From positions 8,050 to 72,049 of IMG/VR virus record IMGVR_UViG_3300048930_000528: a stretch of 64,000 nt of DNA. The stretch is one strand, 5' to 3'. Position numbers and translations under genes: made by a program. Origin of the DNA: a virus. The notes beneath the pieces were generated by a model. The model had not been told where the DNA came from. It saw only the letters and a list, made by a program, of their open reading frames with translations, and did no database searches. This document shows, in pieces, positions 37,836 through 52,100 of the stretch. Numbering within the stretch: the first letter of the stretch is position 1; the number at the start of each line of letters is the position of its first letter.

Positions 37836-38429
37836 ATGAGTACCATGCCCGCACCCGACATTGCCGCGGTCTTTACCGCCGCCCAAGCCAAGCTCCTCCA
37901 CCTCGCCGTCGGCCTGCGTGACCGCGAGCCGCTCGCCATGCAGCGTATAAACGCTTTCGTCCTCAACAAGACCGGCGCCAAGTTCAACGAGTACCTCACC
38001 GGCCCGACGCCCGTCGTCGAGAAGCTCGCCGTCGTGCAGGAAATCACCGCCATCGTTGAGTCCGGCGACCTAAGCAAGCTGCCCTCGGCGCCCAACGGCC
38101 AAGCCTCGGCCCCGCCGACTGCGCCTCGCACCACCCCGCCGCCGGCCCCGCCCAAGGTCGAGCAGCCCAAGCAGCCCGAGGTCAAGCAGCCCGAGCCGCC
38201 TCCGGCCCCGCCCGCCCCGCCTGCCGTCGACGTGGACGACCTCGCTGACGACGACATCGACGCCGACGAACTGGCCGGCGCCATCCAGACCATCGTCAAG
38301 GTGGCGGCCAAGCGCAAGGAACCCGCCGCCCCGCCGGCCCCGGCCTTCACCGAAGCTGACGTGCGCCGCATCATCCGGCACGAACTGGCCGATGCCATGG
38401 AGAAGATCGCCAAGGCGCTGCGTGCGTAA
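37836..38429 (+). CDS. Pro-rich hypothetical protein; its stop codon forms the left core of cassette array 1
   Basis: 197 aa; ends GCG-TAA-C. Confidence 0.6.
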   Translation: MSTMPAPDIAAVFTAAQAKLLHLAVGLRDREPLAMQRINAFVLNKTGAKFNEYLTGPTPVVEKLAVVQEITAIVESGDLSKLPSAPNGQASAPPTAPRTTPPPAPPKVEQPKQPEVKQPEPPPAPPAPPAVDVDDLADDDIDADELAGAIQTIVKVAAKRKEPAAPPAPAFTEADVRRIIRHELADAMEKIAKALRA

Positions 38430-38492
38430 CACCGGCAGTCTGCCACCGGAGGGGCGAAGCCCCGCAGGTTGGCAGTGATGCCTTGGTTCGAC
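38424..38492 (-). repeat. attC-like site Z
   Basis: - strand: GTCGAAC CAAGG CATCACTG ... CAGACTG CCGGT GTTACGC. Confidence 0.75.
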
Positions 38493-38804
38493 CTTCTTTT
38501 TATGAGCTTCGAATACCTGACAACATCCCTCGAAAAAACTCACGCGGCAGCCCGTGACATGGTCTATCGCGCGACCTTCTTACTCGCGAAACGCGATGAC
38601 GGAGTGACGGCCTGCGCTCGCCTGCCGCGCCGAAACTCCCGCAAGCTGGAAATAGGCTACTGCCTCGGCACGGGTCGAATGACTCATTGGGTCGAAACCG
38701 GCATCCTACCGACCGAACATCCCGGCGCGCTCGAATACTGGGTGAAGAAGGCGTTCTTCTACGCGGACGGACACATAGCGTGTGAGAAAAGGAAAAGCGC
38801 ATGA
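38478..38804 (+). CDS. Cassette ORF, hypothetical
   Basis: ATG 38478 in TGATG inside site Z (alternative ATG 38502). Confidence 0.5.
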   Translation: MPWFDLLFMSFEYLTTSLEKTHAAARDMVYRATFLLAKRDDGVTACARLPRRNSRKLEIGYCLGTGRMTHWVETGILPTEHPGALEYWVKKAFFYADGHIACEKRKSA

Positions 38805-39019
38805 GCTACGAAAACACTCAGTGCGTCTGCGGTGGGCGAAAGCTGACCGACACCATGCTGTGCGCCGACTGCGAGAAAGCAGTCGAAGGTACCTTCGACC
38901 GCCGCGAGATGGAAAATCCCGCAGCGACATGGGAGCAGCGGCGCAATGCGGCGATTCGCTGCCTCGCGGTCGCCCGCCGTCGCAACCCAAGCCTACCGCT
39001 TACCTATGCGTGCCGATAG
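38801..39019 (+). CDS. Cassette ORF, small Zn-binding protein
   Basis: C.CGG.K....LC..C; ATGA coupling. Confidence 0.55.
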   Translation: MSYENTQCVCGGRKLTDTMLCADCEKAVEGTFDRREMENPAATWEQRRNAAIRCLAVARRRNPSLPLTYACR

Positions 39020-39118
39020 GTCGAACGCACAAGCTGACCTATGACCACCGCGCCCATGACTACCGAATCCACAACAGACGCCGACGCGGTGGGCATTAAG
39101 TCCAGCGCCTTGTTCGGC
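39020..39118 (-). repeat. attC-like site A
   Basis: - strand: GCCGAAC AAGGC GCTGGACT ... GGTCAGC TTGTGC GTTCGAC. Confidence 0.88.
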
Positions 39119-39676
39119 GTGATTTACGCGGACCCGCCGTGGCGGTATGGCTTCTCTCAATCGGACTCACGCGCCATCGAGTCGCAATATCCGACAATGA
39201 CCGACGAGGAAATCTGTGCTATCAAGGTGCCTGCTGCCAAGGATGCCGTGCTCTACCTGTGGGCGGTGGCTCCACGGCTCGCCGCAGGGCTGCGCGTCAT
39301 GGAAGCGTGGGGATTCGACTACAAGACTTGTGCTGTGTGGGACAAAGAAAAGGTGGGCATGGGCTACTGGTGGCGCGGACAGCATGAAATCCTCATGGTC
39401 GGAACTCGCGGGAAGTTCTCGCCGCCTCCGCAAGCACTCCGCAAGTCGAGCGTGATTCGCTGCCCGCGTGGACGGCACAGCGCGAAGCCTGACCAAGTGC
39501 GCGACTGGATCGGGGAATGGTATCCCGACGTGCCCAAGCTGGAAATGTTCTCTCGGCTAAAACGACCGGGCTGGGAGGTCTTTGGAAATCAGGTCGAGTA
39601 TGACCTGCTAAGCGGGGATTTTTCTTCGCCGAACGTCGCGGGTCAGACACGACCCGCCGAAAACTCCAACCTGTAA
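39041..39676 (+). CDS. MT-A70-family adenine methyltransferase (cassette-borne)
   Basis: IYADPPW, YPTM, LYLW, AWGF.YKT..VW.K, HSAKP, LEMFSR..GW.VFGNQ. Confidence 0.9.
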   Translation: MTTAPMTTESTTDADAVGIKSSALFGVIYADPPWRYGFSQSDSRAIESQYPTMTDEEICAIKVPAAKDAVLYLWAVAPRLAAGLRVMEAWGFDYKTCAVWDKEKVGMGYWWRGQHEILMVGTRGKFSPPPQALRKSSVIRCPRGRHSAKPDQVRDWIGEWYPDVPKLEMFSRLKRPGWEVFGNQVEYDLLSGDFSSPNVAGQTRPAENSNL

Positions 39677-39758
39677 CTCCCATGAAAAACCAAAATCCAA
39701 CTGTAGTCTCTAGCCCGCAGGATCAGTGCGGGTCGTTGTCTGGGAACGCTGGTTCGGC
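39628..39758 (-). repeat. attC-like site B
   Basis: - strand: GCCGAAC CAGCG TTCCCAGA CAACGACCCGC ... GCGGGTCGTG TCTGACC CGCGAC GTTCGGC. Confidence 0.88.
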
Positions 39759-39966
39759 TGCCTTTGCTTTTCCAGTGGGCTCCCGCGTGAAGATCATAGC
39801 CGCCGACCCAGAGTGCCCCGCCGACTTTATCGGCTCCGAAGGGACAGTGGTGAGAATCGCCCCAGCGGATGAAAACTGCTCAGACGATATGTATTCGGTG
39901 CGCACGGATAGCGGTAAGCAAGACGGATTCTTTTCAGATGAGCTGATTTCTTTGCCGAACCAGTGA
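39682..39966 (+). CDS. Cassette ORF, SH3/KOW-like small protein
   Basis: FPVGSRVKI...G.EGTV....Y.V..D.G...F..DEL; starts inside site B. Confidence 0.6.
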   Translation: MKNQNPTVVSSPQDQCGSLSGNAGSAAFAFPVGSRVKIIAADPECPADFIGSEGTVVRIAPADENCSDDMYSVRTDSGKQDGFFSDELISLPNQ

Positions 39967-39980
39967 TTGTGCCACGTGCG
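39954..39980 (-). other. Terminal simple site C (attI/attG-like)
   Basis: Core GCCGAAC without a partner arm, followed by CAGTGATTGTGCCACGTGC. Confidence 0.6.
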
Positions 39981-40039
39981 TCCGCATGGACTTGCGTAAC
40001 TCAATATAAACCAACTCAAACCCAAACCACCCGTGCGAC

Positions 40040-43000
40040 ATGATTAAAGACCAACGATCCGGCATCTCTGCGGAGAACCTCCAAGAGATCATCGAGGCCG
40101 GCGTCAGCGCAGCGCACTCGCTCCAGGGCGGAGCGCAGCAGTACAGCACGCCTCAGTGGCTGGCCAACGCCTGCCGCCAGCTGATCACGGACGCCCGGCC
40201 TTCGTGCGTCCTTGATCCCCAAGGTGCGGCAGGCAACCTCGTCAATGCCCTGCCCGATGGCGTCACCCGCTACGTCACGGACATCGACAACCGCATGGGC
40301 GAGGACGATGCCTCGCACCTCATCAAGCGCATCAAGGGCAACTGCGTCTACATCTTCGAGCTGTTCGATGAACTGTACCCGCACGTTCAGTTCCCGTGCA
40401 TCGTCGCCAATCCACCCTTCGGCATCCGCTGGAAGCAGGCCGACGGCACCACAATCGACAGCACTCAGTGGACGTGGGACCTCATCAAGAAACGCCTGAC
40501 CATTGGCGGCTGCGGTTTCCTGATCTCCAACGCCAACACTCTTGAGCGCCTCGGCATCACCGCGGACCCGTGGGTCTACATCGTGCAGCGCTTCCCGGCC
40601 GGCGGCATCTGGCCCGACTGCAACGTTGAGCTTGGCATCGTGCACTTTGCCAACAGCGCGTCCAATATCCTGCCGCGAAAGCAGGTTGTGACCTGGGACC
40701 GTGTACCCACGGCGAGCGACATCATCCGCCGCCTGTCTGGCGACGTTGCCAATGCGCCGTACCGTCGGGCGACGTACGCCAACCCATTCACCGAGTTTGA
40801 GGTGGTGTCCAAAATCATTTCCGAGGAGGCGAAGAACCGGCCCCAGTTCAACATCTACCTCGACAAGAATGGCATGCTGCGGACCTACCTCAGCCTGCGC
40901 CATCACCACAAGTTCAAGGAGGACGACGTCAAGAAGCTGTTCCGCGTGAACAACTGCCACCCACTATCCCTCACCACGGAGCGCGACACGCGGAAGCTCA
41001 TGTTCGAGCTGGCCAACGCCGGCATCTACACTATCCAGCCCGAGGCCAAGGCCGCCATCGAGCAGGCGCTTGCCGAAGTCGCCAGCCTTGCCTGCCCAAT
41101 CCGCCCGGTCACCGACTTCGAACTGGTCGCCTACGCCGACGAAGAGGACACGCTTGTCGCCATCTCCGGCACGGTTGACGGCATCCACCTCACGCCCGGC
41201 AAGCGGTACGAAGTTGGCACTGGCACGTACACCTTCACGGATCGCTTCACCCGCAAGAAGATCCACTTCAACGAGGAGACCGAGGAGACCACGATCGACG
41301 AGCACGACTGCGAACTCTCCGGGCAAGATCGCTACGTGCAGATCACGGACGACCGAGGCATGCAGCACCGCTTCATGGAGCGACCCGAGACCGGCATCAA
41401 ATGGATGCACCCGGAGTCCATGCTTTGGACTTTGTTCAAGCGTCCCTTCGTTCCCACCGTTGGCGAAGTCATGGCTGATTGCGTGGCGACCAACCTCCAG
41501 AAGATGGCGTTCTCTGAGCTAGTCGCTGGCTTCACCTATTTCCCCGGCCAGCGTGACTACTATTCCCGCATGGCGTGCAAGGATTATGGGCTGGTGGCTG
41601 CGAGTACCGGATGCCATGCGAAAGGGACGCTAATCATGATGAGCGATGGCCGAAATAAAATCGTGGAAGACATCATTGTTGGTGATTGCGTGATGGGTTG
41701 GGACTCGACGCCGAGGCGGGTCACTCGCTTGGCTCAAGGGCGTCAGCAGATGGCCAAGATAATCCCCACTAAAGGAGATCCGTTCGTCGTCAACTTGGAC
41801 CATATTTTAACGCTGGTTAAGACCGGAACAAGTTCGTCGGTCGGCGGGGACGTAATTGACGTGAAGGTCAGAGATTACCTCGGATGGAAGCCATCGCAAA
41901 AGCATATTTATAAACTCTTCCGCAAGGAGATTAGCCTACAAGCAAAACCAATCGACTCCCTTTCGCCGTACTTCATGGGGGTTTACATTGGCGACGGGAC
42001 ATCGACGTCGTGGCAGGTTGCAATTACAAAGCCCGACAAGGAGGTTGAGGATGCTGTTGCCGATGAGTGCTCAAAGTGGGGATGGCGATACAGGACCGCG
42101 TTGCGGTCTGGGTCGGAAACGAATAAGACACACTTCATCCCAGGTCACGGCATAAAGCGAGAGCTTTATCAACATGGGCTTCTTGGAATACACTCAAGCA
42201 ATAGGTTTATTCCAGACGCTTACAAGTACAACAGCCGTGATGTGAGGCTTGAGGTTCTTGCTGGCATCATTGATAGCGACGGCCACCTTTGTGATGCCGG
42301 AACATTTGACTACATAAGCCAATCGCAATCTCTTGCCGATGATGTTGTGTGGTTGGCTAGATCAGTCGGGCTTGCCGCTTACGTGAAGCCATGCCAGAAG
42401 TATTGCCAGACCGGAGGCGGAGGCACGTATCATAGGGTTTCCATATCAGGCGAACTCTCTATCATTCCAACAAGAATCAAGCGCAAGCAAGCCGCGCAAC
42501 GCAGGCAGAAGAAAAGCGTCCTGCGAACAGGATTCAAAGTTGAGCTTCTGCCAGAGGATGACTACTACGGGTTCAGTATTGAAGGCGACGGGCGGTTCTT
42601 GCTTGGCGACTTTACAGTGACCCACAACACCGGCAAAACCCTGGGGGCTTTGACACTCATCAGCCTCAAGGCGCCGCGCCGTTCGCTCATCATCGCTCCG
42701 CAGGGAACGATGCGCTCGTCCGGCTCGGAGGAGGAGGTTGATTATCAGGCATCGCAGTGGGTGCAGGAGATCACGCGCTTCGCCCCGCTCGAGCCCGTGT
42801 TCCAGTTGTTCAGCATGCAGGATTACCTGTCCGTCCTGCACGCCAACGGCGGCGTGCTTCCGCCCGGCATCTACGTCACCTACCCGCAGGCTTACTTCTC
42901 CAACAGCGCCTTCGAGTCCTTGCCTGCCACATGGGAAAACCTCGACGCCTTCGAGACAGAGGAAAAGTTCTGCCGGCGCATGGGCCTGCCGTTCAGCAAG

Positions 43001-44371
43001 GATACTCCCGTGGAGCGCCACTACCACACTGGCGTTGGCTCGGCCAAGAACGGTATCCGGTGCGTGGCGACGCCGTCGCTGTCCACCGTCATCGCAACCA
43101 ACCATGGCGAGTGGGACATGGTTGTCTTGGACGAGGCGCACCTTTACCAGAGCCTTGAATCTTGCATCACGAACAACATGATCCGGCTTCAACCGCGGTT
43201 CAGGTTCGCACTCACTGCCACACCAATCAGCAACATCATCACGAACATATTCAGCCTCATGGGTTGGCTGTGCGTGAAGGACTGGTACAGGGGTGGGATG
43301 CGTAACGCCGCATGGCCCTATGCCGTGGACGAGGGGCATCGGTTTTCGACGACATTCCTTGCCACCGAGATCGACCGCACGGCGCAGCTCAAAGCCAAGA
43401 TGAAAGGCAAGAAGGGGTGGGGCAAGATCGGCATCAGGCCGTCGCCCGTCATCAGTTCCCCGGCTCGCCTGCTCAAGCTCCTCAAGCCGACGATGGCGTA
43501 CATCTCCAAAGAGGACTGCAACCCCAACCTCCAGCCGTGCACCGTGTCCGATGTCCGCGTGCCAATGGGTCGCGAGCAGGCCAAGCTCTATGCGTACTGG
43601 CTGGAGCGGGCCAACTACGTTCCCGAGTTCAAGAACCCGCTGACGATCGCCCAGGTTCAGATGTCCCGGCTGCGTGGCGTCTGTGCCTCGCCGGCCAGCC
43701 TCGACTACACCCGCGGCATGGCCCGGTCCAACTTCAACCCGAAGACCGTCACCATCCTTCAACTCATCCGTGACTGCCTCCGCAAGGGCGAGCAGGTGGT
43801 TGTCGTCTCGGCTCGTGTTGGCCAGTCAAACGAGTTGGCGCGTCGCCTTTCCGAGGCCGGAGTCCAGATCGCACGCATCGACTCGACCGTGCCGGCGGAG
43901 ATGCACACGGCTGAGGCCAACAGGTTCAAGCGTGGCGACGCCCGCGTCATGCTCATGGGCATCAAGTGCGCACAGGGTCACTCGTTTGACCGATGCCCCA
44001 ACCTCATCGTTGGCTCGCTCGAGTGGTCCTACGGCACGCTCGACCAGGCGAAGGGCCGGGTGTGGCGCCTGACCTCGCCTCAGCCCGTCAAGGTGTGGAT
44101 CGTCCTTCACCAGAACACGATTGAGGAGCTCCTGTTCGACCGGGTTGCGCTCAAGCAGGACGCCGCCACGCTGTGCCTTCACGGCAAGCGGGTGCCGCGT
44201 GACTTCAAGACGCTTGACCCGAGCGAGGTGCTGGCCGAGCACATCGTTGACTTCGACCACGAAGGCGAGACGCGGTCCGAATCCGAGTGCGAAACGCAGT
44301 GGCCCGACCTGCGCAAGCAGCTCGTCCTCGCCAACAACAGCGGCATCCCGGCCGGCTTCGCCGCGGCCTGA
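40040..44371 (+). CDS. DarB-like N6-methyltransferase/SNF2 helicase fusion containing an intein
   Basis: STPQWLA, VLDPQGAAGNL, IVANPPFG; ASTG|TGKT, VLDEAH, LTATP, QAKGRVWR. Confidence 0.85.
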   Translation: MIKDQRSGISAENLQEIIEAGVSAAHSLQGGAQQYSTPQWLANACRQLITDARPSCVLDPQGAAGNLVNALPDGVTRYVTDIDNRMGEDDASHLIKRIKGNCVYIFELFDELYPHVQFPCIVANPPFGIRWKQADGTTIDSTQWTWDLIKKRLTIGGCGFLISNANTLERLGITADPWVYIVQRFPAGGIWPDCNVELGIVHFANSASNILPRKQVVTWDRVPTASDIIRRLSGDVANAPYRRATYANPFTEFEVVSKIISEEAKNRPQFNIYLDKNGMLRTYLSLRHHHKFKEDDVKKLFRVNNCHPLSLTTERDTRKLMFELANAGIYTIQPEAKAAIEQALAEVASLACPIRPVTDFELVAYADEEDTLVAISGTVDGIHLTPGKRYEVGTGTYTFTDRFTRKKIHFNEETEETTIDEHDCELSGQDRYVQITDDRGMQHRFMERPETGIKWMHPESMLWTLFKRPFVPTVGEVMADCVATNLQKMAFSELVAGFTYFPGQRDYYSRMACKDYGLVAASTGCHAKGTLIMMSDGRNKIVEDIIVGDCVMGWDSTPRRVTRLAQGRQQMAKIIPTKGDPFVVNLDHILTLVKTGTSSSVGGDVIDVKVRDYLGWKPSQKHIYKLFRKEISLQAKPIDSLSPYFMGVYIGDGTSTSWQVAITKPDKEVEDAVADECSKWGWRYRTALRSGSETNKTHFIPGHGIKRELYQHGLLGIHSSNRFIPDAYKYNSRDVRLEVLAGIIDSDGHLCDAGTFDYISQSQSLADDVVWLARSVGLAAYVKPCQKYCQTGGGGTYHRVSISGELSIIPTRIKRKQAAQRRQKKSVLRTGFKVELLPEDDYYGFSIEGDGRFLLGDFTVTHNTGKTLGALTLISLKAPRRSLIIAPQGTMRSSGSEEEVDYQASQWVQEITRFAPLEPVFQLFSMQDYLSVLHANGGVLPPGIYVTYPQAYFSNSAFESLPATWENLDAFETEEKFCRRMGLPFSKDTPVERHYHTGVGSAKNGIRCVATPSLSTVIATNHGEWDMVVLDEAHLYQSLESCITNNMIRLQPRFRFALTATPISNIITNIFSLMGWLCVKDWYRGGMRNAAWPYAVDEGHRFSTTFLATEIDRTAQLKAKMKGKKGWGKIGIRPSPVISSPARLLKLLKPTMAYISKEDCNPNLQPCTVSDVRVPMGREQAKLYAYWLERANYVPEFKNPLTIAQVQMSRLRGVCASPASLDYTRGMARSNFNPKTVTILQLIRDCLRKGEQVVVVSARVGQSNELARRLSEAGVQIARIDSTVPAEMHTAEANRFKRGDARVMLMGIKCAQGHSFDRCPNLIVGSLEWSYGTLDQAKGRVWRLTSPQPVKVWIVLHQNTIEELLFDRVALKQDAATLCLHGKRVPRDFKTLDPSEVLAEHIVDFDHEGETRSESECETQWPDLRKQLVLANNSGIPAGFAAA
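41612..42628 (+). mobile_element. Intein with LAGLIDADG homing endonuclease (339 aa)
   Basis: Starts CHAKGT, ends VTHN before Thr+1; MGVYIGDG and LAGIIDSDG; lower GC than flanks. Confidence 0.95.
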
Positions 44372-44375
44372 CACC

Positions 44376-44576
44376 ATGAGCAACGACTTCGAGAAGGTGG
44401 AGCTTCACGGCGGTCCGCTTGACGGGCTTGAGTTGTTTGCCAGCGAATCGTTCAAGCTGGAGGAACTCGATCCCGAGACTGGGCTCATCCACGTCTACGT
44501 GAGACGCGGCAGTGGCGTCTTCCAGTACGCCGGCCACCAGCCATCCGGCCTGCCTCCGGCGCTGGGCGGAAGCTGA
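44376..44576 (+). CDS. Small hypothetical protein (GGPLDG motif)
   Basis: VELHGGPLDG...HVY. Confidence 0.55.
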   Translation: MSNDFEKVELHGGPLDGLELFASESFKLEELDPETGLIHVYVRRGSGVFQYAGHQPSGLPPALGGS

Positions 44577-44577
44577 T

Positions 44578-44607
44578 TTGACATTGCCAAATCGCCGGAT
44601 GTAACCT
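44578..44607 (+). promoter_or_regulatory. Sigma70-type promoter for the recombinase and cassette array 2
   Basis: TTGACA (44578-83), 18-bp spacer, TAACCT (44602-07), 11 bp before ATG 44619. Confidence 0.65.
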
Positions 44608-44618
44608 CGGATTCCAGC

Positions 44619-45620
44619 ATGCCCACGACAAAGAAAGCCGCAGGACTCAAGATCAAGGCGATGGACTCCACCAAGGTGACGCCGGCGGCGATCCGCGCAG
44701 CCAAGAAGATCCTTCGGGCCGCCGAAGAGTCGGGCATGCAGGATGCAATCCTCGCTGCGCTCATGCAGCGGAAGACCGTACCCGTGAAGCAGGCCTTGGC
44801 CGAGTGGCACCTATGGCGGAAGGCGAACTCGTCAGCGTCCACGCTCCGCACCAACCGGCTGGCACTAGATCAGTTCTTCGATGGGCTCGAGGCCGCAAAC
44901 TGGCCGGTGTCAAAAATCACGATCCAGCACATTGACGCATGGGTTAACAAAGACGACGCCTGCAAGCGGGCCACCCGCGAGGCAAAGCTCGCCGCCATCC
45001 GATCGTTCTACAAGTTCGTCACCGCGAATGCCTATTGCCAGACCAACCCGGCGCAGCTGGTGCATGTTCGCATTCGCGACATGACGCACGCTCAGCTGGA
45101 GCGCACCGTGCGCGAGCCCATCACCGAGCACGAGTACCGGCATATCATGGCCAACACCGAAGGCTTTTGGAAATGGGCAACGGCGATCAGCTACTGGGCG
45201 GGGCTGCGCATGAGCGACGTGTTCGCACTCCAGTGGGCTCAGATCATGCCCACCGAGATCGTAGCCTGGGCGAAAAAAGACGGCGACCGGCTAGTGCTTC
45301 CACTCAACCACCCGCTCATCGGCGGAGGGGAGTTGGTGCCTGTGCTGTTCGAGGTATTGAGTAATCGCCAAGACGATACATACTGCTTCCCCGATCAGCA
45401 TCGCGAGATGGCCGACATCGAGAAGCGTTCCAAGTTCTCGGTCTACTATACACGCCTGCTTGCCGGGCTAGGCATTGAAGGCAAGAGCTTCCATTCGCTG
45501 CGGCATGCGTTTGCCACCCGGCTCGCCAACGCAGGGGTGACACCTGAGCAGATCGGGCGGTGGATGGGGCACAGTTCGACGCGCATCACCGAGGGGTACA
45601 TCCACCGCGGCAAGCGATGA
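44619..45620 (+). CDS. Second tyrosine recombinase (XerC/D-like architecture, no IntI insertion)
   Basis: SAM-like N-domain (AAIRSFYKF...NP), AGLRMSD, HSLRHAFAT, MGHSS, catalytic Tyr in EGY. Confidence 0.9.
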   Translation: MPTTKKAAGLKIKAMDSTKVTPAAIRAAKKILRAAEESGMQDAILAALMQRKTVPVKQALAEWHLWRKANSSASTLRTNRLALDQFFDGLEAANWPVSKITIQHIDAWVNKDDACKRATREAKLAAIRSFYKFVTANAYCQTNPAQLVHVRIRDMTHAQLERTVREPITEHEYRHIMANTEGFWKWATAISYWAGLRMSDVFALQWAQIMPTEIVAWAKKDGDRLVLPLNHPLIGGGELVPVLFEVLSNRQDDTYCFPDQHREMADIEKRSKFSVYYTRLLAGLGIEGKSFHSLRHAFATRLANAGVTPEQIGRWMGHSSTRITEGYIHRGKR

Positions 45621-45660
45621 TCGGTAAACCATCATCAATCATCGAATCCCTGATCGTCCA

Positions 45661-45882
45661 ATGAGTAACCCACAGAACGAACTGACGCCGTCCGCTGGCC
45701 CGAATTGCGCTGTGGCGTCTGGTTCGCCTCCGGGGCTCTACAACCTATACGTCCGCCACACCGATGGGCGCACAAAGAAACTGACGGGCTACGCGATGAC
45801 ACATCACGAGTGCTGCGTGATGAAGAGCAAACTAAGCGAATGGACGCAGGCTCGCACACTGCTCGTAAAGGAGACGAAATGA
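45661..45882 (+). CDS. Cassette ORF, hypothetical
   Basis: Reads through half-site D. Confidence 0.5.
   Translation: MSNPQNELTPSAGPNCAVASGSPPGLYNLYVRHTDGRTKKLTGYAMTHHECCVMKSKLSEWTQARTLLVKETK
45690..45728 (-). repeat. attC-like half-site D (partner arm missing)
   Basis: - strand GGCGAAC CAGAC GCCACAGC GCAA; core GTTCGCC matches GGCGAAC at 46064. Confidence 0.65.
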
Positions 45883-46139
45883 AACACGACCCAGACCACT
45901 ACCTCACGCAGCCGATGGACAATCAGGAGGCGGCGCACAATCGCCGCGTGGCCGTGACGGCCGAGAACGTCGCCGCGTGTGCGCAAGCCATCCGCGACCT
46001 CGACCGCATCACGCCGCGCCCGCTCACCGCCGAAGACCAAGCGCGTGCCGTGCTCACGTTCTTGGCGAACACCAAGGTGACCGATGCGCAGCCCAAGGCG
46101 AACGACGCCGGACCGGGTAGCAATGCGCATTCGGTCTAG
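45879..46139 (+). CDS. Cassette ORF, hypothetical
   Basis: AAGGAG RBS; stop inside site E. Confidence 0.55.
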   Translation: MKHDPDHYLTQPMDNQEAAHNRRVAVTAENVAACAQAIRDLDRITPRPLTAEDQARAVLTFLANTKVTDAQPKANDAGPGSNAHSV

Positions 46140-46152
46140 CGAATGGTTCAGC
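46064..46152 (-). repeat. attC-like site E
   Basis: - strand: GCTGAAC CATTC GCTAGACC GAATGCGCA ... TGCGCATC GGTCACC TTGGT GTTCGCC. Confidence 0.88.
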
Positions 46153-46160
46153 CCTCTTTT

Positions 46161-46433
46161 ATGCCCTCACCAATCGAAAGAATGATCGACGCCGCGACCG
46201 GCTACACGCCGCCGCCAGCGCCGAAGAAACGCACGCTCCCGACTGCCGAAGAAAAGCAGATAGCGACCGATGCCGGAAACGACGTCATCTGGTATATCGA
46301 CGCGCAGTATCCCGCGATGTGGGACGGCGTGCCGAAGTCAGCGCGGACCAGCGTGAAAAACGCCGTCTACAACCGCGTGATCTTAATCTTGCTGAACGCC
46401 AAGATCAGCAACGCGGGGACGAAAACAGAATGA
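46161..46433 (+). CDS. Cassette ORF, hypothetical
   Basis: MPSPIERMIDAA (alternative ATG 46143); stop inside site F. Confidence 0.55.
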   Translation: MPSPIERMIDAATGYTPPPAPKKRTLPTAEEKQIATDAGNDVIWYIDAQYPAMWDGVPKSARTSVKNAVYNRVILILLNAKISNAGTKTE

Positions 46434-46520
46434 CTCTATGAGCACGAAAATCGAAGACAAACCCATAGCGAGCGCCGGAGCGGACAGCTCCCCGCGTTGC
46501 GCTGTATCGCCTGGTTCGAC
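46391..46520 (-). repeat. attC-like site F
   Basis: - strand: GTCGAAC CAGGC GATACAGC GCAACGCGGGGA ... TCCCCGCGTT GCTGATC TTGGC GTTCAGC. Confidence 0.92.
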
Positions 46521-46722
46521 GATTGAAACGACCGAACGCAAGGTGATGGTCGCGCTCTGCGGACTGTGCATCGCCGTCTTCTGCGCGGCTCTTCTCGGCA
46601 TCGCTTTCTACGTGCATGTCGTCGCCGGGCTATTCGCTCTCGCGCTCATCGCGTGGTGGCTCGGCTCATCGATGGCCGAAGTGCTCAAGGAAACTCGCGA
46701 GCGTGATTCGTCGAACGACTAG
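46438..46722 (+). CDS. Cassette ORF, two-TM membrane protein
   Basis: Two hydrophobic helices; starts in site F, stops in site G. Confidence 0.6.
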   Translation: MSTKIEDKPIASAGADSSPRCAVSPGSTIETTERKVMVALCGLCIAVFCAALLGIAFYVHVVAGLFALALIAWWLGSSMAEVLKETRERDSSND

Positions 46723-46805
46723 GTATGCCAGCCCTACCCGCCATCGATGTTGATTCGCCAGTAACTGCCCGCCGGGTAGGGATTGGCATGACCGACTTGT
46801 TCGGG
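46710..46805 (-). repeat. attC-like site G
   Basis: - strand: CCCGAAC AAGTC GGTCATGC CAATCCCTACCCG ... CGGGTAGGGCTG GCATACC TAGTC GTTCGAC. Confidence 0.92.
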
Positions 46806-47282
46806 GTTGTGGACGTGGTGCCGAGTGACATCGTGCTGACCCCGGAACCAATCGCGCAAGCCGTGGTGGAACGCTTCAAACCATCTGGCCGCGTGCTCGA
46901 TCCGTGCAAGGGAGATGGTGCCTTCCTGAAGTTCATGCCTGGTGCTGAGTGGTGCGAGATTCGCGAAGGCCGATGCTTCTACGACTGGAAAGAGCCGGTG
47001 GACTGGATCGTCTCGAATCCACCTTACAGCGTCTTCTCGGACTTCCTTCGGCACAGCTTCACGGTGGCGGAAAACATCGTCTATCTGATCCCCGTCAACA
47101 AGGCGTTCAACTCTGACAAGATGATGCGCGAAATCTGGTCATGGGGAGGCGTGAAAACCATCTTCGTGATTGGCTCCGGTGGATCGCTGAACTTCCCAAT
47201 CGGCTTCTGCATAGGAGCTGTTCACTTCGTGCGCGGCTATCGGGGCGGCGCGAATGTGGAATTTTATACCCCGAACACCTAG
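46725..47282 (+). CDS. Small DNA adenine methyltransferase (cassette-borne)
   Basis: LTPE.IA, VLDPCKGDGAF, WIVSNPPYS. Confidence 0.85.
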   Translation: MPALPAIDVDSPVTARRVGIGMTDLFGVVDVVPSDIVLTPEPIAQAVVERFKPSGRVLDPCKGDGAFLKFMPGAEWCEIREGRCFYDWKEPVDWIVSNPPYSVFSDFLRHSFTVAENIVYLIPVNKAFNSDKMMREIWSWGGVKTIFVIGSGGSLNFPIGFCIGAVHFVRGYRGGANVEFYTPNT

Positions 47283-47363
47283 CTCAGACATGGCTGGCTC
47301 TCCCTCAACTCTCGAACACTTGGCGGCCCCGCGCCAGCCATTGTCTGTGGCGTCTGGTTCGCT
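47270..47363 (-). repeat. attC-like site H
   Basis: - strand: AGCGAAC CAGAC GCCACAGA CAATGGCTGGC ... GCCAGCCATG TCTGAGC TAGGT GTTCGGG. Confidence 0.92.
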
Positions 47364-48081
47364 GCTTCTTTGGAACGCGGACTGCATAGAAGTGCTGCCA
47401 CAAATCACGGCGGCGGCGGTTATCACCGATCCGCCCTATGGCATCAACGATGCAGCTTTCGATTCGGGGCCACGCGAAGGAAAACGCAAGGGAGGCGATA
47501 ATACTTGGCATCCGGCAAGCGATTGGGATGCGGAGATAAAGCCGGAATGGTGCGCTGCGGTATGCGCTGCCGCGCCGGTGGTCGCATGGATGGGCCACTG
47601 GAGAAAACGCGGCATGGTAGAGGCAGCGATGCCCCACAAACTGCGCGCGGAAATAGTGTGGGCAAAAGACTGCCATGTAGGCCCGCCATGTCCGGTGGCA
47701 ATGCAGGATGAGCGCGTGTGGCTATTCTCGCGCGAAGGCATCACGGCTAAGCGATTTGACACGACCGTGTGGAGCGTTCCGATAATCCCGACGTGGGCAC
47801 ATAAGCACCACAAAAACGAGAAGCCGGTCGCGCTGATGGCGCGAGCGATCTACCTGCTGACATCCGAAGGTGATACCGTGCTCGATCCATTCATGGGGAG
47901 CGGCACGACGGCAATCGCGTGCATCCGGACGGGCCGCAAATTCATCGGGGTGGAGCGCGACCCCGCGCACTTCCAAACGGCAGTCGAGCGCATCCGCCGA
48001 GAACTGGCACAGGGCGACCTGTTTTTGCCAGCGAACACTGAGGTCAGAGAATCGCGCCCTGACCCGACCAAACAACCCTGA
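47290..48081 (+). CDS. Beta-class N4/N6 DNA methyltransferase (cassette-borne)
   Basis: ITDPPYG, HKNEKPV.LM, VLDPFMGSGTT. Confidence 0.9.
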   Translation: MAGSPSTLEHLAAPRQPLSVASGSLLLWNADCIEVLPQITAAAVITDPPYGINDAAFDSGPREGKRKGGDNTWHPASDWDAEIKPEWCAAVCAAAPVVAWMGHWRKRGMVEAAMPHKLRAEIVWAKDCHVGPPCPVAMQDERVWLFSREGITAKRFDTTVWSVPIIPTWAHKHHKNEKPVALMARAIYLLTSEGDTVLDPFMGSGTTAIACIRTGRKFIGVERDPAHFQTAVERIRRELAQGDLFLPANTEVRESRPDPTKQP

Positions 48082-48138
48082 ACCTTCAACGAACAATCAG
48101 AGCGGCTGCACGCGATTCTCTGCACCGTCTGGTTGGGA
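48030..48138 (-). repeat. attC-like site I
   Basis: - strand: TCCCAAC CAGAC GGTGCAGA GAATCGCG ... CGCGATTC TCTGACC TCAGT GTTCGCT. Confidence 0.92.
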
Positions 48139-48147
48139 ATTTCCATC

Positions 48148-48408
48148 ATGGACCAAATACTAAAAGCACGATCTGCAATCGTCGCGGAACTCAAACGCCG
48201 CGCTCTGGAAAAAGACCCGAACGTAAGGCCACTGAATCCGGATGCCGCCCTTCGCTGGCACAAGCCGCAGGACAACTACTATTCGGGCGCTGGCGAAATG
48301 GCGTGCCCGATCTGCGAGGCAGGGAAACTGCGCTACAGCCGAAGCGGCTACAATGGGCATGTCCACGCGGGCTGCACAACGGAAGGGTGTGTGTCATGGA
48401 TGGAGTGA
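48148..48408 (+). CDS. Cassette ORF, Zn-ribbon protein
   Basis: CPIC..G.LRYS...NGHVHA.C.T.GC..WME. Confidence 0.65.
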   Translation: MDQILKARSAIVAELKRRALEKDPNVRPLNPDAALRWHKPQDNYYSGAGEMACPICEAGKLRYSRSGYNGHVHAGCTTEGCVSWME

Positions 48409-48418
48409 CCGCGACACT

Positions 48419-48531
48419 TCCCAACGAAAAAGGTGAGCCGCGCTCGCCGAAGAAAGGACAATGACATGAGCGGAGAAAAGACATCCGAAGACGTGACGGC
48501 TGCGAGCGTTGGCTCTACCGACGGGTTCGGC
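48419..48531 (-). repeat. attC-like site J
   Basis: - strand: GCCGAAC CCGTC GGTAGAGC CAACGCTCGC ... GCGAGCGCG GCTCACC TTTTTC GTTGGGA. Confidence 0.92.
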
Positions 48532-48789
48532 GATGGCTGCGACCACTGTGACACCTTCGGAGGGCAGAAGACCTACGCGAACCAAGCGTGCCTGCCGCTC
48601 AACGGTCGCGTCGTGTGCGTGGACTGGTGCATCCATCAAATCGTGGCGGCGCTCAACGCCGGCGGCGTGCGCACGACTGCGTGCTGCTGCGGTCATGGGC
48701 GAATGCCGGGCCGCATCGACCTTGAGGACGGCCGCATACTCACGATCTCTTCGCCGAACAAGGCGGATATGCCGACGTGCAGCAAATAA
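48466..48789 (+). CDS. Cassette ORF, Cys-rich protein
   Basis: VD.CI..IV.ALN.GG..T..CCCGHG; AAGGA RBS and ATG lie inside site J. Confidence 0.65.
   Translation: MSGEKTSEDVTAASVGSTDGFGDGCDHCDTFGGQKTYANQACLPLNGRVVCVDWCIHQIVAALNAGGVRTTACCCGHGRMPGRIDLEDGRILTISSPNKADMPTCSK
48753..48781 (-). other. Terminal simple site K (attI/attG-like)
   Basis: Core GCCGAAC without a partner arm, followed by AAGGCGGATATGCCGACGTGC, similar to site C. Confidence 0.6.
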
Positions 48790-48798
48790 GCGGAACTC

Positions 48799-49161
48799 AT
48801 GCAGGCCTTACTTCGTTACCCCAAACGTCAGCGCAGCGCCAAAGCCAGGGAGTGGGGTGCTCGTGGCAATGCGTCCCAAGCCGTCGCCAGGCTCACGCGA
48901 GACCTGCCATGGGAGACCATCGTAGCTCGCGCACGCGACGACGAACGCGGAAAGCTGACTCGCCATGGATGCACCTACTTCGGCGACGGCCGCATTGTGC
49001 ATTGGGAAATTCGCCGATCCATCGCCGGCCGCCACAACCAGTTCGATGTGATTGCCGACGGCATTCTCGTCCGAACCTATGGCCAGCGTCGTCTTCAGTC
49101 GTGGCTTAGGATGGTGCCACCTATCAAAGCCCCATCGCCTGCAGCGCAGCGCGCCGCCTGA
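48799..49161 (+). CDS. Hypothetical basic protein
   Basis: Last + ORF, converging with the giant - gene. Confidence 0.4.
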   Translation: MQALLRYPKRQRSAKAREWGARGNASQAVARLTRDLPWETIVARARDDERGKLTRHGCTYFGDGRIVHWEIRRSIAGRHNQFDVIADGILVRTYGQRRLQSWLRMVPPIKAPSPAAQRAA

Positions 49162-52100
49162 CGTCTTCGAGGTTGGGCACGCGTGAAGCCCGCGGGCGCA
49201 TGGCCGATCCCATCCGGCGAGCGATGGCCTCCTGCAAATCGCTCGGCGCGATCATGTCCGTGTAGCGGTCGAAGAGACTCAGCGCCTCGTTGACGGCCAT
49301 GCGCCCGTCTTCACCTAAGGCTGACATCAGCCGCCCCATCTCAGCCTCGCTTGGCTTGGTGCGGAACGTGGTCGTCAGTGGGTTGCGCGACTTCCAGTTG
49401 GTAAGGACGTACGACTCTGGCGACTCTTCGCCGCGTGCACGCGCGGCCGAGACCGCGTTCCGGTACGCCTCAAGGAATCCGATCCTGTCATTCGACAGGG
49501 CCTTCAGTTGCATCTGGCGAATCCAGACCGACACTGGCGTTGGTGAACTGCGGCCGGCGCCCATGCGAAGTTCAAGCCCCGCCTCGCGTCCGGCGGCGCG
49601 CAGGTAGTTGTTGACGTTGATCCGGTTCGTGACCTGCGCCTCGGAGTTTGAGAGGCCAAAGGCGTTATTTAAGATCTGCGTTGCCTGAATTTGCCCGCCA
49701 AATCCAAAGGCATTAAGCGCCGGCCGGATGGTGGACGCATAGGTCACAGCGCCCTCGGTGTGGATCAGGTCGCGCACGATGTCGCGCATGTTGGCAAACT
49801 GGGAGAAGATCAGAATGCGCGAGTTTAGGTCGAAGTCGCGCTGGCCTGCCTGCGGATCGACGATGTTGAATACCGACGACACGGCATCGCCCGCTAGGCC
49901 GAACGTGCCGGCACGAGCAGCGCGCTCGAGGATTGCCAGTGCGCCTACCCGGTCGCCCTGCAAGGACTCAGCCGCAGCATTCGCTACACCAACCACTGGT
50001 ACCATGTCGATCGGGCGCAGCTTCCGCAGATTAGGCTCCTTGGCCAGCAACTCGCGGTCGTACGCGTCCATGAGTAGGGAGTATGCGAGGCCAGCAGGCA
50101 GAGACCAAAGTGCCATGATGCCGATGCCCTTAACAATGGACGCCACTTGGAATCGGCCGTCCGTCGTCTTGAGCGCCTCGTTGATCTGGTTCACTTTGGA
50201 GATTGGCCAGCCGAGAAGCAGGCCGCCGAATCGCCACACCGGATTATTGAACCACTCCACCGGGCGGGTGTTGATCGACGACTCCAGCGACACCTCGTTG
50301 ACGGCCATCATTGCAACGCCAAGTGCTTGGTCCCGGGTGAGAAGCGTTTCGCCCTTTGCCGCGCGCCGCATGGCGCCGCGCACGACGTCCTCAAGGTTGC
50401 CGATCTGGTACTCGCCAAGCCTGTCTCGGTAAAACCGGAACGCACCTTCATCAGAGAAGTATGCACCTCCCTTCATGCCCAGCATATCCGGCGTAAACCG
50501 GAACGCGGGGTCCGCCTCTGCGTTGGGATTGCGGCGGAAGTAATCGATCCCGCGGGCAACCATCTGGTCGAAGACCTGCACGTTGGCCGTGGCGATCGAG
50601 GTGATACTCTTTTCGGACAGGTAGCGGAAGGGTGCCCACAATGCGTTGAACACACCAAACCTACCAGTGGGCTTCGGCAGCGATTCAAGCGCCTTGCTTA
50701 GTGCTGGAACATTCTTGACCACCGGAGCCCTTGATAACGCAGACAGGTCTAGGCCGCCGCGCATCGCTTGGTTTACACCTCGGACAATCTGGACTACACG
50801 GTTTGATCCGCCTTCCTGGAAGCTGGCATTCCTACCAATGTCAGCCATGCGCTGCCCCATCTGGAGGCTGCTGGTTGCGCGCCCCTCAAATGCTTCGCCG
50901 ATCCATATCTGGTAGTCCGAAGCCTGGAGGAAATTAAGGCCGAAGTTGTCGAGTGCGCTTCCGAGAACCTCAGTCCCGAACGTCTTCCACGCCTTGCCCG
51001 TAACCACAAGCCCGGTGGGACCAAGGCCCTTGTATGCCAGCGGGAAATCGAACAGCGACATCAAGTTCCACAGACCCGACTTTGGCTGGTTGAGAACCAT
51101 CATCACGTTGAGTTGGGCAAGCTCAAGCGCCCAGCGTGCATCCCCCACGGCGCCAGTCGTGTTACCGTAGGAGAAGTACTCGTTCATCTGGTTCTCCCAG
51201 CGCTCGACGTTTGCCATGTCCTTTGCCGCGCGCTCAAGGTCGTCGAAGTTCCATCCGCGGTCAGTGGCCGCGCGTCGCTTCACGGAGGCTGGCCCCGGTG
51301 GCAGCTGCTGGTAGAGGCGATACCGGCCGGCGAGATCCGCACGAAGGTCAGTCAGGTCTTGCTGCACGCCTGAACCGTCACGCCCGAACGCAGCATGAAA
51401 CGCAATCTCGGCGAGGAAGTTCTGTGCCGACTTGGCCTCGAACACTTCGTACTGTAACCACTCAGGCGGAATGAGATCGTTGGTTCGACCATCCATCAGC
51501 CGGTGCTGCTTCGACGTGCGCCCGCCATTCAGGTTTGGCGCCTTGTCCACCTTGGCGACCAGCTTGGAGCCCATCTTGTAGAGCCCGGCAAATCGCTTGA
51601 GCATAGCCGCTCGGTACGCCGGAAGGTCGGCGTCGGTGTCGAGCTCGTTCGTTCGCGCGAAGAGGTTGTCGATCCACGCCGCGACGTCGCCACCAGATTC
51701 TTCCCATGCCTCAAGCGCAATCTCCTGCGGAACGTAGGCCCGCTCGCCGGGCGTGTTCGACGCGCCCATGAATACCGACCGCCCAGGCTTGCGGACGAAT
51801 GGAGCAACGAAGTCACGCACTATCTCCGGCGTGAAGTAGGTCCCAATCGCTTCCGCAAAGGCCGCATCTTCGTAGGCCTCCTCGGCAAACAAGTCATCCT
51901 TCCAGCCTGCCTTGGCCATGGTGTCGGTGACAGCCTCGATCGCAGAGGCACGCAGGCGCCGCGGCATGGTGAGCCAGCCGTACTTGATCGCATGGCGGAG
52001 CATGTTCTGGTCCGAGGTGAGCGGGTCCTTGATACGCGGGTCTTCCACGTACACGCCGTGCTTCTCTGCGACCGCCTTCATGTGCTCGGACATCTCTTTG

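Follow-up and report, generated by a model that had tools for sequence, protein, structure and literature searches.

Backward integron-type cassettes in a phage genome probably share an asparagine exit frame and take their stop codons from the next cassette

Two Cassette Arrays in a Phage Genome

The subject of this work is a window of 64,000 nucleotides from the IMG/VR virus record IMGVR_UViG_3300048930_000528 (positions 8,050 to 72,049 of that record) and the attC-type gene cassettes that it carries. Positions are those of the window unless stated otherwise. The cassettes lie at 38.4-48.8 kb, where all genes are on the + strand, and form two arrays (3 + 7 cassettes) on either side of a conserved module composed of a methylase-helicase and a recombinase. 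A first-pass annotation, made from the sequence alone, had proposed that the recombination sites double as standardised stop and start modules that are read in one fixed asparagine (Asn) frame. The best explanation, and one that is considered likely, is that these are integron cassettes turned backwards, whose genes leave through a fixed Asn frame and receive their tail and stop codon from the neighbouring cassette.

The window contains ten full attC-type hairpins (J1-J3, J7-J13) and two half sites that possess only a left core (J4, J14). Full sites span 53-131 nt from R-box start to R-box end, with a left core of the form xxxxAAC and a right core of the form GTTxxxx. The individual sites and genes are given in Table 1.

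Structure of the Recombination Sites

The sites are attC-type imperfect hairpins, and the units that they delimit are integron-type gene cassettes. In single-strand folds, the arms pair at all ten full window sites. A structural alignment of 14 sites, eight from the window and six from the unrelated contig L219, gives a common architecture. The outer part is made up of a 7-nt R box, a 5 x 5-nt unpaired spacer, and a 3-bp helix. The inner part follows with a one-base bulge, a 6-bp helix, a bulged T, and a variable stem. The AAC/GTT pairs are invariant in all 14 aligned sites. Pairing is observed in 89.6% of the alignment cells, compared with 70.2% after shuffling and 21-41% when the partners are slid. 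Both sides have changed in 12 of 18 pairs, as expected of compensatory change, and the observed score was reached by none of 500 shuffles.

The ends of the units are also complementary. For 10 of 10 pairs of consecutive window sites, the right core, once reverse-complemented, is identical to the left core of the next site in its four variable positions; identity with the left core of its own site is found for just one of the ten. In other arrays, the next core matches in 22 of 29 cases versus 4 of 29 for the own core, with a random pairing rate of 0.07. Such complementary ends would therefore form an R box upon circularisation, which is a hallmark of integron cassettes.

Many left cores are immediately preceded on the coding strand by T-rich tracts, e.g., at 39620-39631, 39946-39957, and 48022-48033. 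T-rich tracts also occur just downstream of several right cores, e.g., at 38493-38503 and 46153-46160. The left-flank and right-flank tracts are not complementary to each other.

The Asparagine Exit Frame

In eight of the ten window cassettes, the last open reading frame (ORF) runs across the AAC of the left core, which it reads as an Asn codon every time (8/8). All eight junction peptides that had been listed (SPN/VAG, LPN/Q*, LAN/TKV, LLN/AKI, SSN/D*, TPN/T*, PAN/TEV, and SPN/KAD) are present in the ORF translations, and the eight AAC codons were located at the positions in Table 1. The last ORFs of the remaining two cassettes terminate at a stop of their own, which is in another frame and 2-14 nt short of the core. 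An Asn-frame stop follows the AAC by 1-23 codons at 12 of 12 left cores and precedes the right core at all ten full sites. Three sites that no ORF enters were said to hold such a stop beside a start (TGATG, ATGA, and TGACATG with AAGGA upstream). This is confirmed, and J7 is a fourth site of this kind. One coordinate needed correction: the AAC of J13, placed at 48424, starts at 48423. The frames across the right GTT core had been described as variable, and three frames are indeed used in the window, with GGT-TCG at four sites, xxG-TTC at four, and ATG-GTT at one.

The estimate of (1/3)^7 given for chance agreement of the eight ORFs is too small, because it ignores codon bias in coding sequence that is rich in G and C at third codon positions (GC3). 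The composition null is made up of 50 phage genes outside the cassette arrays (the 40040-44371 gene kept in), with a mean GC3 of 0.78. In these genes, the in-phase rate is 66% for AAC, 57% for GAAC, 44% for CGAAC, and 49% for [CG][CGT]GAAC. Since in-phase AAC is common under this bias, the window on its own gives P(8/8) of ~0.001-0.04.

A wider sample started from the 379 homologues of the 185-aa methyltransferase of cassette 7, which led to 80 viral and 23 genome loci. A covariance model, R1, was made from 14 sites and used to scan 1.02 Mb at E <= 0.05. This search returned 56 sites, each of them on the same strand as the methyltransferase gene. Of the 56, 48 come from 19 contigs other than the window. 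The covariance-model alignment, which is blind to reading frame, supplied the core positions; a crude scanner for AAC...GTT arms was used only to pick out the arrays.

An open stretch of 60 codons or more leads up to the left core in the Asn frame at 41 of these 56 sites, in the +1 frame at 6, and in the +2 frame at 8. The Asn frame is open too at 12 of the 14 non-Asn cases. The remaining non-Asn cases resemble upstream extensions of the next gene's frame or have a non-coding composition. The 41 Asn-frame ORFs fall into 36 sequence families, and 29 of these are without a window member. With a null of 0.66 per site, P is ~6e-6 for the 29 families and ~3e-7 for all 36. The right GTT core serves as a control, where the frames of the downstream ORFs are uniform (12/17/15 over 44 sites). 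At model-defined sites with xxxTAAC cores, the reading is CCT-AAC, and the TAA is not used as a stop. Tabulated over many arrays, the AAC frame is thus far from random, and by the evidence of these reading frames the fixed Asn frame is a real, general rule.

Homology Breaks and C-Terminal Tails

According to the first-pass annotation, a cassette gene takes its stop codon and its last residues from whichever cassette follows, and homology between related cassettes should end at the Asn codon. Both are seen in the families of two window proteins. For the 185-aa methyltransferase, 50 of the 379 homologues were placed in a family alignment. Their bodies are conserved to ..F(Y/R)(T)PN and are followed by unrelated tails of 0-20 residues. 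Many family members naturally end in ..VTFR, which identifies the added xPN as the translated R box.

The 90%-identity cluster of this methyltransferase has 54 members, of which 14 of the 15 listed were aligned. Six members (P0190, which is the window protein, P0070, P0191, P0195, P0200, and P0202) have an identical hairpin-encoded N-terminus of 28 residues and bodies that are 97-100% identical. After ..YTPN, their tails read T, TSSRDSGSL, S, D, AEPIHGEKDA, and VERWRS.... Another subgroup has a different common N-terminus and four differing tails.

The MT-A70 methyltransferase of cassette 2 behaves in the same manner. In its 90%-identity cluster, 14 of 18 members were aligned. P0210 and P0216 have the same N-terminus and body variants and, after ..SPN, the endings DQAHP and NKVSDGADRKD, respectively. 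A ..YGQN subgroup has variable tails as well.

At the DNA level, homology between the window methyltransferase cassette and the one in L139 ends 2-3 nt past the AAC, and four more family pairs from the model-defined set agree up to the Asn and then diverge. Together, the L139 comparison and the cluster alignments narrow the cassette boundary to the AAC codon or the next residue. Tails are exchanged among near-identical copies. The same N-terminal extension accompanies differing tails, and therefore the upstream hairpin travels with the gene, while the tail and stop come from the neighbour.

Stop and Start Codons in the Hairpins

An Asn-frame stop is present between the two cores at 49 of 56 sites, versus 26 and 31 in the other frames. 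At the 15 sites without entry in the Asn frame, such a stop is present at 12, versus 8 and 6. The positions of the Asn-frame stops within the hairpins are spread over 1 to 44 codons (56 sites).

By a crude ORF call, the downstream frame has its first ATG -4 to +10 nt from the stop at 21 of 43 sites, and ten of these are ATGA overlaps. At 24 of 44 sites, this ATG is located between the cores. From this spacing of stops and starts, we infer translational coupling between cassettes. Coupling, together with melting of the hairpin by the ribosome, is proposed because of what parts of PMC8876359 report for attC and attI1 and what parts of PMC11511950 report for the translation of cassettes.

Orientation of the Cassettes

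Classically, an integron cassette is a complete promoterless gene on the top strand that is followed by its own attC. The window arrays depart from this layout, in which the coding sequence is on the top strand and attC is 3' of the gene. Both bulged bases are located on the 3' arm of the coding strand, opposite the left AAC. In the window sites and in L219, numbering from the GTT core's outer end puts the bulges at positions 16 and 23. In the part of Nivina et al. 2016 (PMC5027507) considered here, the extrahelical bases are opposite the AAC on the bottom strand, and cleavage occurs between A and C. The same part names G16 and T23 for attCaadA7, under a numbering convention that may not be the same.

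The ends of the arrays have the same polarity. Each window array has a full hairpin first and a left-core-only site last, and there are no right-core-only sites. Moreover, in two genomes with a bona fide intI gene (489 and 492 bits; cut-off 265), 4 of 4 adjacent model hits point towards intI. By fold and array layout, the phage coding strand is shown to be the attC bottom strand, and the cassettes run backwards with respect to the classical arrangement. The earlier statement that ORFs of classical integrons have the opposite orientation is thus upheld by the bulges, the array ends, and intI. Its second half, that these ORFs lie largely outside attC, is right only for the ORF body.

In L250 (G004:C1) and L251 (G003:C4), several coding-like ORFs lie on the strand of the bottom-strand model hits and point towards intI. 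Going by these ORFs, backwards cassettes may exist in bacterial integrons too.

Viral contigs L168, L172, and L141 (GC 0.31-0.49) carry homologues of the 185-aa methyltransferase in classical-looking arrays. With this methyltransferase in both array types, one gene family would therefore occur in cassettes of both polarities. The arrays of these three contigs have xxxTAAC cores, and their ORFs end before the site. Four L168 sites, parsed by eye and given low weight, have extra bases on the AAC arm of the coding strand. An automatic count of unpaired bases per arm is confounded by branched folds in the low-GC sites of L168.

The Recombinase

The tyrosine recombinase encoded between the arrays (44619-45620) scores 31.9 bits on TIGR02249, which has a cut-off of 265, and is Xer-like. 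With no intI beside the arrays, they are of the type known as clusters of attC sites lacking an integrase (CALINs). A true IntI is encoded in three of the five metagenome-assembled genomes that have arrays of this site type, on other contigs. Because the phage recombinase is Xer-like and three of these five genomes encode IntI, a host integrase is the likelier agent. The sites are probably recombined by a host integron integrase and not by the Xer-like enzyme of the phage.

Cassette homologues are absent from the 110 recombinase-related loci, and only three GAAC...GTTC hairpins occur in the 1.19 Mb of these loci. The recombinase is kept in relatives without cassettes, and its family is therefore not linked to the arrays. 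As a route to further arrays, the recombinase was given up, with an empty single-protein scan and 110 profile-scan loci without cassette homologues. A scan of viral contigs with the right-arm 16-mer returned 28 loci, none related by tblastx, and was dropped as chance. One of them, L009, has two 16-mer matches and is unrelated; there the 16-mer belongs to a stretch of which the 1.3-kb contig has a copy at each end.

A second tyrosine recombinase gene is located at 13601-13915 (21650-21964 of the phage genome, G000). Its score of 19.9 bits is far under the integron-integrase cut-off.

Proposed Arrangement and Alternatives

In the favoured arrangement, crossover would take place between A and C of the left core, a position that comes from integron biochemistry and is backed by the comparison of cassette boundaries. 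On the coding strand, a cassette would be composed of C, hairpin, GTT core, gene body, and RYYYAA, with the hairpin as a 5' leader that travels with the gene. Most genes lack a stop codon. Their frame takes the 7-nt R' box as x-(Pro/Ser/Ala/Leu)-Asn, always in the same phase, and closes 1-23 codons later. The stop is contained in the hairpin of the next cassette, usually a few bases from that cassette's start codon. With the same exit frame throughout and an Asn-frame stop in nearly every hairpin, reshuffling would give short tails and no fusion or run-on. A ribosome that terminates in the hairpin would melt it and pass on to the next start. The arrays would act as reshuffle-proof coupled operons under phage promoters. 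We infer that the hairpins have an added role at the RNA level, as part of this explanation.

A broader proposal is rated as evenly balanced. It holds that phages and some bacterial arrays have a separate cassette grammar with bottom-strand genes, in which the unit would be made up of the previous gene's stop, its own start, and a stopless ORF. A universal x-Pro-Asn exit would turn any order of cassettes into a terminated, coupled operon, and host integrases would shuffle the pool during infection.

Several points weigh against the favoured arrangement. Two window cassettes have their own stop, and the Asn rule is therefore a strong tendency and not an absolute. A single cassette gene, through its homologues, was the source of the wider sample. 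Open length is a crude criterion for calling ORFs, and spurious frames like that at J13 may account for about one in eight of these calls and for about 7 of the 41 Asn-frame ones. At one of the 56 sites (L219 6483), no stop is encountered in the Asn frame over 228 codons. Long tails exist, with 47 aa in P0193 and 35 aa in P0213 and P0218. The co-travelling hairpin is told by cluster-level comparison alone, at the protein level, and distant homologues (~80% identity, L139) share neither flanking hairpin. The four model hits adjacent to intI are weak, at 29-33 bits. No integron integrase was found in the phage, where the best scores over the whole genome are 21.2 and 19.9 bits. Start codons, coupling, and site activity in the phage are all predicted from sequence.

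The agreement in frame could be a compositional artefact of GC3-rich genes, and the window by itself leaves some room for this, with AAC in phase at 44-66% by motif in phage genes and P(8/8) of 0.001-0.04. The wider sample makes it scarcely credible. There, the Asn frame is ahead by 41 to 6 and 8 and is open too at 12 of those 14, the 36 families give P ~3e-7 at a null of 0.66, the GTT-core frames are uniform at the same sites, and xxxTAAC cores are read as CCT-AAC and not as a TAA stop. A classical polarity is also very improbable, if slightly less so. It would place the crossover at the right GTT core, and each gene would own its downstream hairpin, tail, and stop and borrow just its N-terminus, which the preceding cassette would supply. 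The complementarity between right core n and left core n+1 fits this equally well, homologues of the same methyltransferase are found in classical-looking low-GC arrays with the site after the ORF, and neither flanking hairpin is conserved at ~80% identity. Identical hairpin-encoded N-termini with six differing tails speak against it, as does the like behaviour of MT-A70. So do the bulges on the arm opposite the left AAC (by the rule in the part of PMC5027507 cited above), arrays that end in left-core-only sites with right-core-only sites lacking, and model hits that point towards the adjacent intI in four of four cases.

The most serious competitor, though an unlikely one, accepts that tails are swapped at the Asn but holds the fixed frame to be a by-product of cassette origin or descent that is not kept for termination or coupling. 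It draws on the R box having been added straight after the natural methyltransferase C-terminus (..VTFR versus ..VTFR-TPN), on hairpin stops that are scattered over 1-44 codons with the frame alone standardised, and on some tails being as long as 35-47 aa. The Asn-frame stop is enriched nonetheless (49/56 versus 26 and 31), also at sites that are not entered (12/15 versus 8 and 6), and the next ATG is -4 to +10 nt from the stop at half of the sites, with 10 ATGA overlaps. A single frame across 36 unrelated families would be hard to hold without selection once cassettes move. Least probable of all is that the hairpins act mainly at the RNA level, as processing or translational control elements in the phage transcript, and resemble attC only by convergence. 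T7-type phages have conserved intergenic RNase III hairpins, and the hairpins described here are on the transcribed strand at every gene junction, contain start codons, and have G-T pairs in the coding-strand fold. However, the complementarity of the cassette ends (10/10 and 22/29) has no RNA rationale, the same gene is found beside differing neighbours, the same site model matches next to true intI genes, and close relatives are without hairpins and genes together.

Relation to Known Systems

Statements about published systems in this section refer to parts of PMC5027507, PMC9892861, PMC8876359, and PMC11511950. Like the integron attC sites of PMC5027507, the phage sites have an R box, a 5 by 5 nt spacer, and two bulges opposite the AAC. 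Structure is kept while sequence varies, and the cassette ends are complementary, as in the integron cassettes of that paper. In contrast to those cassettes, the phage genes occupy the bottom strand, which makes attC a leader 5' of the gene and not a trailer at its 3' end. The phage genes also start in one hairpin, cross the crossover triplet in frame, and stop in the next cassette. The phage differs from a complete integron in that it has no IntI, no recognisable integron cassette promoter (Pc), and only candidate attI sites at the array ends.

Qi et al. 2023 (PMC9892861) described CALINs in virulent and temperate phages, with five predicted methyltransferases. Host IntI1 can recombine phage attC sites, and bottom strands are more active than top strands. 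The arrays described here are likewise phage-borne attC clusters without an integrase and with methyltransferase cassettes. Unlike the present arrays, those CALINs are oriented as in bacterial arrays, and the part of PMC9892861 considered mentions no bottom-strand genes, in-frame core, or borrowed tails; its supplement may bear on orientation.

ORF-11/ORF-18 of attI1 in class 1 integrons (Hanau-Bercot 2002 via PMC8876359) has a frame that spans the crossover. ORF-11 takes an in-phase stop from the core or 5' untranslated region of the next cassette and promotes that cassette's translation by termination-reinitiation. The phage genes resemble ORF-11, as a functional analogy only, in that their frame runs across the crossover and a stop in phase comes from the following cassette (8/10 window cassettes). 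In contrast, ORF-11 is one short leader peptide at the platform attI. The phage has full-length cargo genes, attC x attC joints, the other strand, and a stop in the hairpin and not in the GTT core.

In classical resistance cassettes, attC commonly overlaps the stop codon, and translation up to attC raises expression of the downstream cassette (PMC11511950, Nat Commun 2024). The end of the gene overlaps the recombination site in both cases. The classical cassettes differ in that they have their own stop at the R'' end of their own attC, whereas here the stop is the neighbour's.

In shufflons, the Rci recombinase acts on sfx sites and swaps the C-termini of PilV by inversion between short inverted repeats within one gene. 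Both systems exchange C-terminal segments by site-specific recombination in a reading frame. Shufflons, however, vary a functional C-terminal domain, whereas whole genes are mobile here and the swapped tails are short by-products. A shufflon reading of the arrays was set aside because the mobile unit is a whole gene and not an inverted segment.

A literature search found phage CALINs, ORF-11, and the overlap of attC with stop codons; it did not find bottom-strand cargo genes, a fixed Asn frame, or exchanged tails at attC joints, and supplements may hold orientation data.

If correct, the arrangement means that the recombination system and the translation apparatus share one sequence code. The recombination site would be a 5' leader, the gene would be incomplete at its 3' end, and the common frame would keep every rearrangement translatable. 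Many metagenomic proteins have odd, short extensions at the C-terminus (xPN followed by a variable tail), which this would explain. For annotation, the ends of cassette proteins would depend on context, and integron finders that expect an ORF and then attC would mis-orient such arrays. Predictions would follow for the choice of strand by integrases on phage DNA and for termination-reinitiation through attC hairpins. The known phage CALINs are extended here to a complete phage of 72 kb, whose ten cassettes include three for DNA methyltransferases; this fits evasion of host restriction. Phages would then have a plug-and-play supply of early genes, methyltransferases among them, that resembles an integron and is expressed from phage promoters and not from Pc.

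Genome Context and Features

The phage genome is 72,049 bp long, with a 127-bp terminal direct repeat and a GC content of ~0.62, and is rated 100% complete in the collection (direct terminal repeats). The terminal repeat and the rating therefore indicate a complete phage genome. Megablast against phage GenBank records gave no match for the region. Fourteen ORFs of the array region (the 12 cassette ORFs, 44376-44576, and 48799-49161) were searched in related loci, with 0 matches. In L030, the one relative examined, the recombinase gene directly abuts the giant gene that converges on array 2 in the window, and a single ORF that resembles a C5-methylase sits where array 1 would be. By this comparison with close relatives, in which hairpins and genes are absent together, the cassettes are accessory DNA. 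Sites, cassettes, and flanking genes are listed in Table 1.

Table 1. Sites, cassettes, and flanking genes of the two arrays (window positions; R1, score with the covariance model).
Feature	Position	Strand	Description
Gene upstream of array 1	37836-38429	+	Conserved, with homologues in 2 related loci (L030, L064); TAA inside first left core
J1, first site of array 1	38424..38492	+	Left core GCGTAAC from backbone; holds upstream gene's TAA
J1 Asn-frame stop	TGA 38476	+	Overlaps ATG 38478 (TGATG)
Cassette 1, two small ORFs	38478-38804, 38801-39019	+	No Pfam match
Cassette 1, stop of second ORF	TAG 39017	+	Own stop, outside Asn frame, abuts next left core
J2	39020..39118	+	GTCGAAC ... GTTCGGC; no ORF enters; R1 81.6 bits
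J2 Asn-frame stop	TGA 39042	+	Overlaps ATG 39041 (ATGA)
Cassette 2, MT-A70 adenine methyltransferase	39041..39676	+	PF05063, E 2.2e-17
Cassette 2 exit	AAC 39632	+	Asn across J3; tail VAGQTRPAENSNL; stop 39674
J3	39628..39758	+	GCCGAAC ... GTTCGGC; contains MT-A70 stop and next gene's ATG 39682; R1 59 bits
Cassette 3, 94 aa	39682..39966	+	AAC 39958 as Asn across half site J4; tail Q, then stop
Half site J4, right end of array 1	39954..40039	+	GCCGAAC, then non-palindromic DNA up to methylase-helicase start; attI-like; right core not found
Methylase/SNF2-helicase, 1443 aa, with intein	40040-44371	+	Matches in 51 related loci
Tyrosine recombinase between arrays	44619-45620	+	PF00589, PF02899; matches in 110 related loci
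J7, first site of array 2 (short)	45676..45728	+	AACGAAC (backbone) ... GTTCGCC; no R1 match at E <= 0.05
J7 Asn-frame stop	AAC 45680	+	Stop one codon past AAC; no ORF enters
Cassette 4, two ORFs	45661-45882, 45879-46139	+	Second ORF: AAC 46068 as Asn across J8; 22-residue tail; stop 46137
J8	46064..46152	+	GGCGAAC ... GTTCAGC; ATG 46143 abuts right core; R1 60 bits
Cassette 5, 96 aa	46143..46433	+	AAC 46395 as Asn; tail AKISNAGTKTE; stop 46431
J9	46391..46520	+	GCTGAAC ... GTTCGAC; contains ATG 46438; R1 61.6 bits
Cassette 6, 94 aa	46438..46722	+	AAC 46714 as Asn; tail D; stop 46720
J10	46710..46805	+	GTCGAAC ... GTTCGGG; contains ATG 46725; R1 48 bits
Cassette 7, 185-aa methyltransferase, NPPY motif	46725..47282	+	Weak PF02384 match; 379 homologues
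Cassette 7 exit	AAC 47274	+	Asn; tail T; stop 47280
J11	47270..47363	+	CCCGAAC ... GTTCGCT; contains ATG 47290; R1 70.9 bits
Cassette 8, N6/N4 DNA methyltransferase	47290..48081	+	PF01555, E 6.2e-25; AAC 48034 as Asn; tail TEVRESRPDPTKQP; stop 48079
J12	48030..48138	+	AGCGAAC ... GTTGGGA; R1 66.6 bits
Cassette 9, 86 aa	48148..48408	+	Own TGA 48406, 14 nt before next core, other frame
J13	48419..48531	+	TCCCAAC ... GTTCGGC; no gene enters; R1 61.4 bits
J13 Asn-frame stop	TGA 48462	+	Within TGACATG, AAGGA upstream
Cassette 10, 107 aa, Cys-rich	48466..48789	+	AAC 48757 as Asn; tail KADMPTCSK; stop 48787
Half site J14, right end of array 2	48753..48798	+	GCCGAAC, then non-palindromic DNA

A long hydrophobic stretch in its translation suggests that the product of cassette 6 is a membrane protein. 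The gene upstream of array 1 contains a Pro/Ala-rich repeat stretch with PPAP and KQPE units at 38100-38350.

The helicase part of the methylase-helicase is split by an intein with a homing-endonuclease domain (41612-42628, residues ~525-863; Pfam Hom_end_hint and Hom_end). L029 and L030 are without the intein, because the helicase flanks match there as two locus pieces, which abut in L030. A promoter-like element is present at 39990-40015 before the methylase-helicase, just right of the array-1 end site, and a motif resembling it also precedes the homologous gene in L030. A similar element composed of TTGACA, a spacer, and TAACCT is found before the recombinase (44582-44612).

The giant ORF (2940 aa) occupies 49124-57946 on the minus strand and runs towards the end of array 2. 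The L030 counterpart, 3064 aa long, directly abuts the recombinase gene. Beyond the end site of array 2 comes a 120-aa ORF (48799-49161) that lacks its own hairpin, has no homologue in related loci, and overlaps the end of the convergent giant gene by 38 nt.

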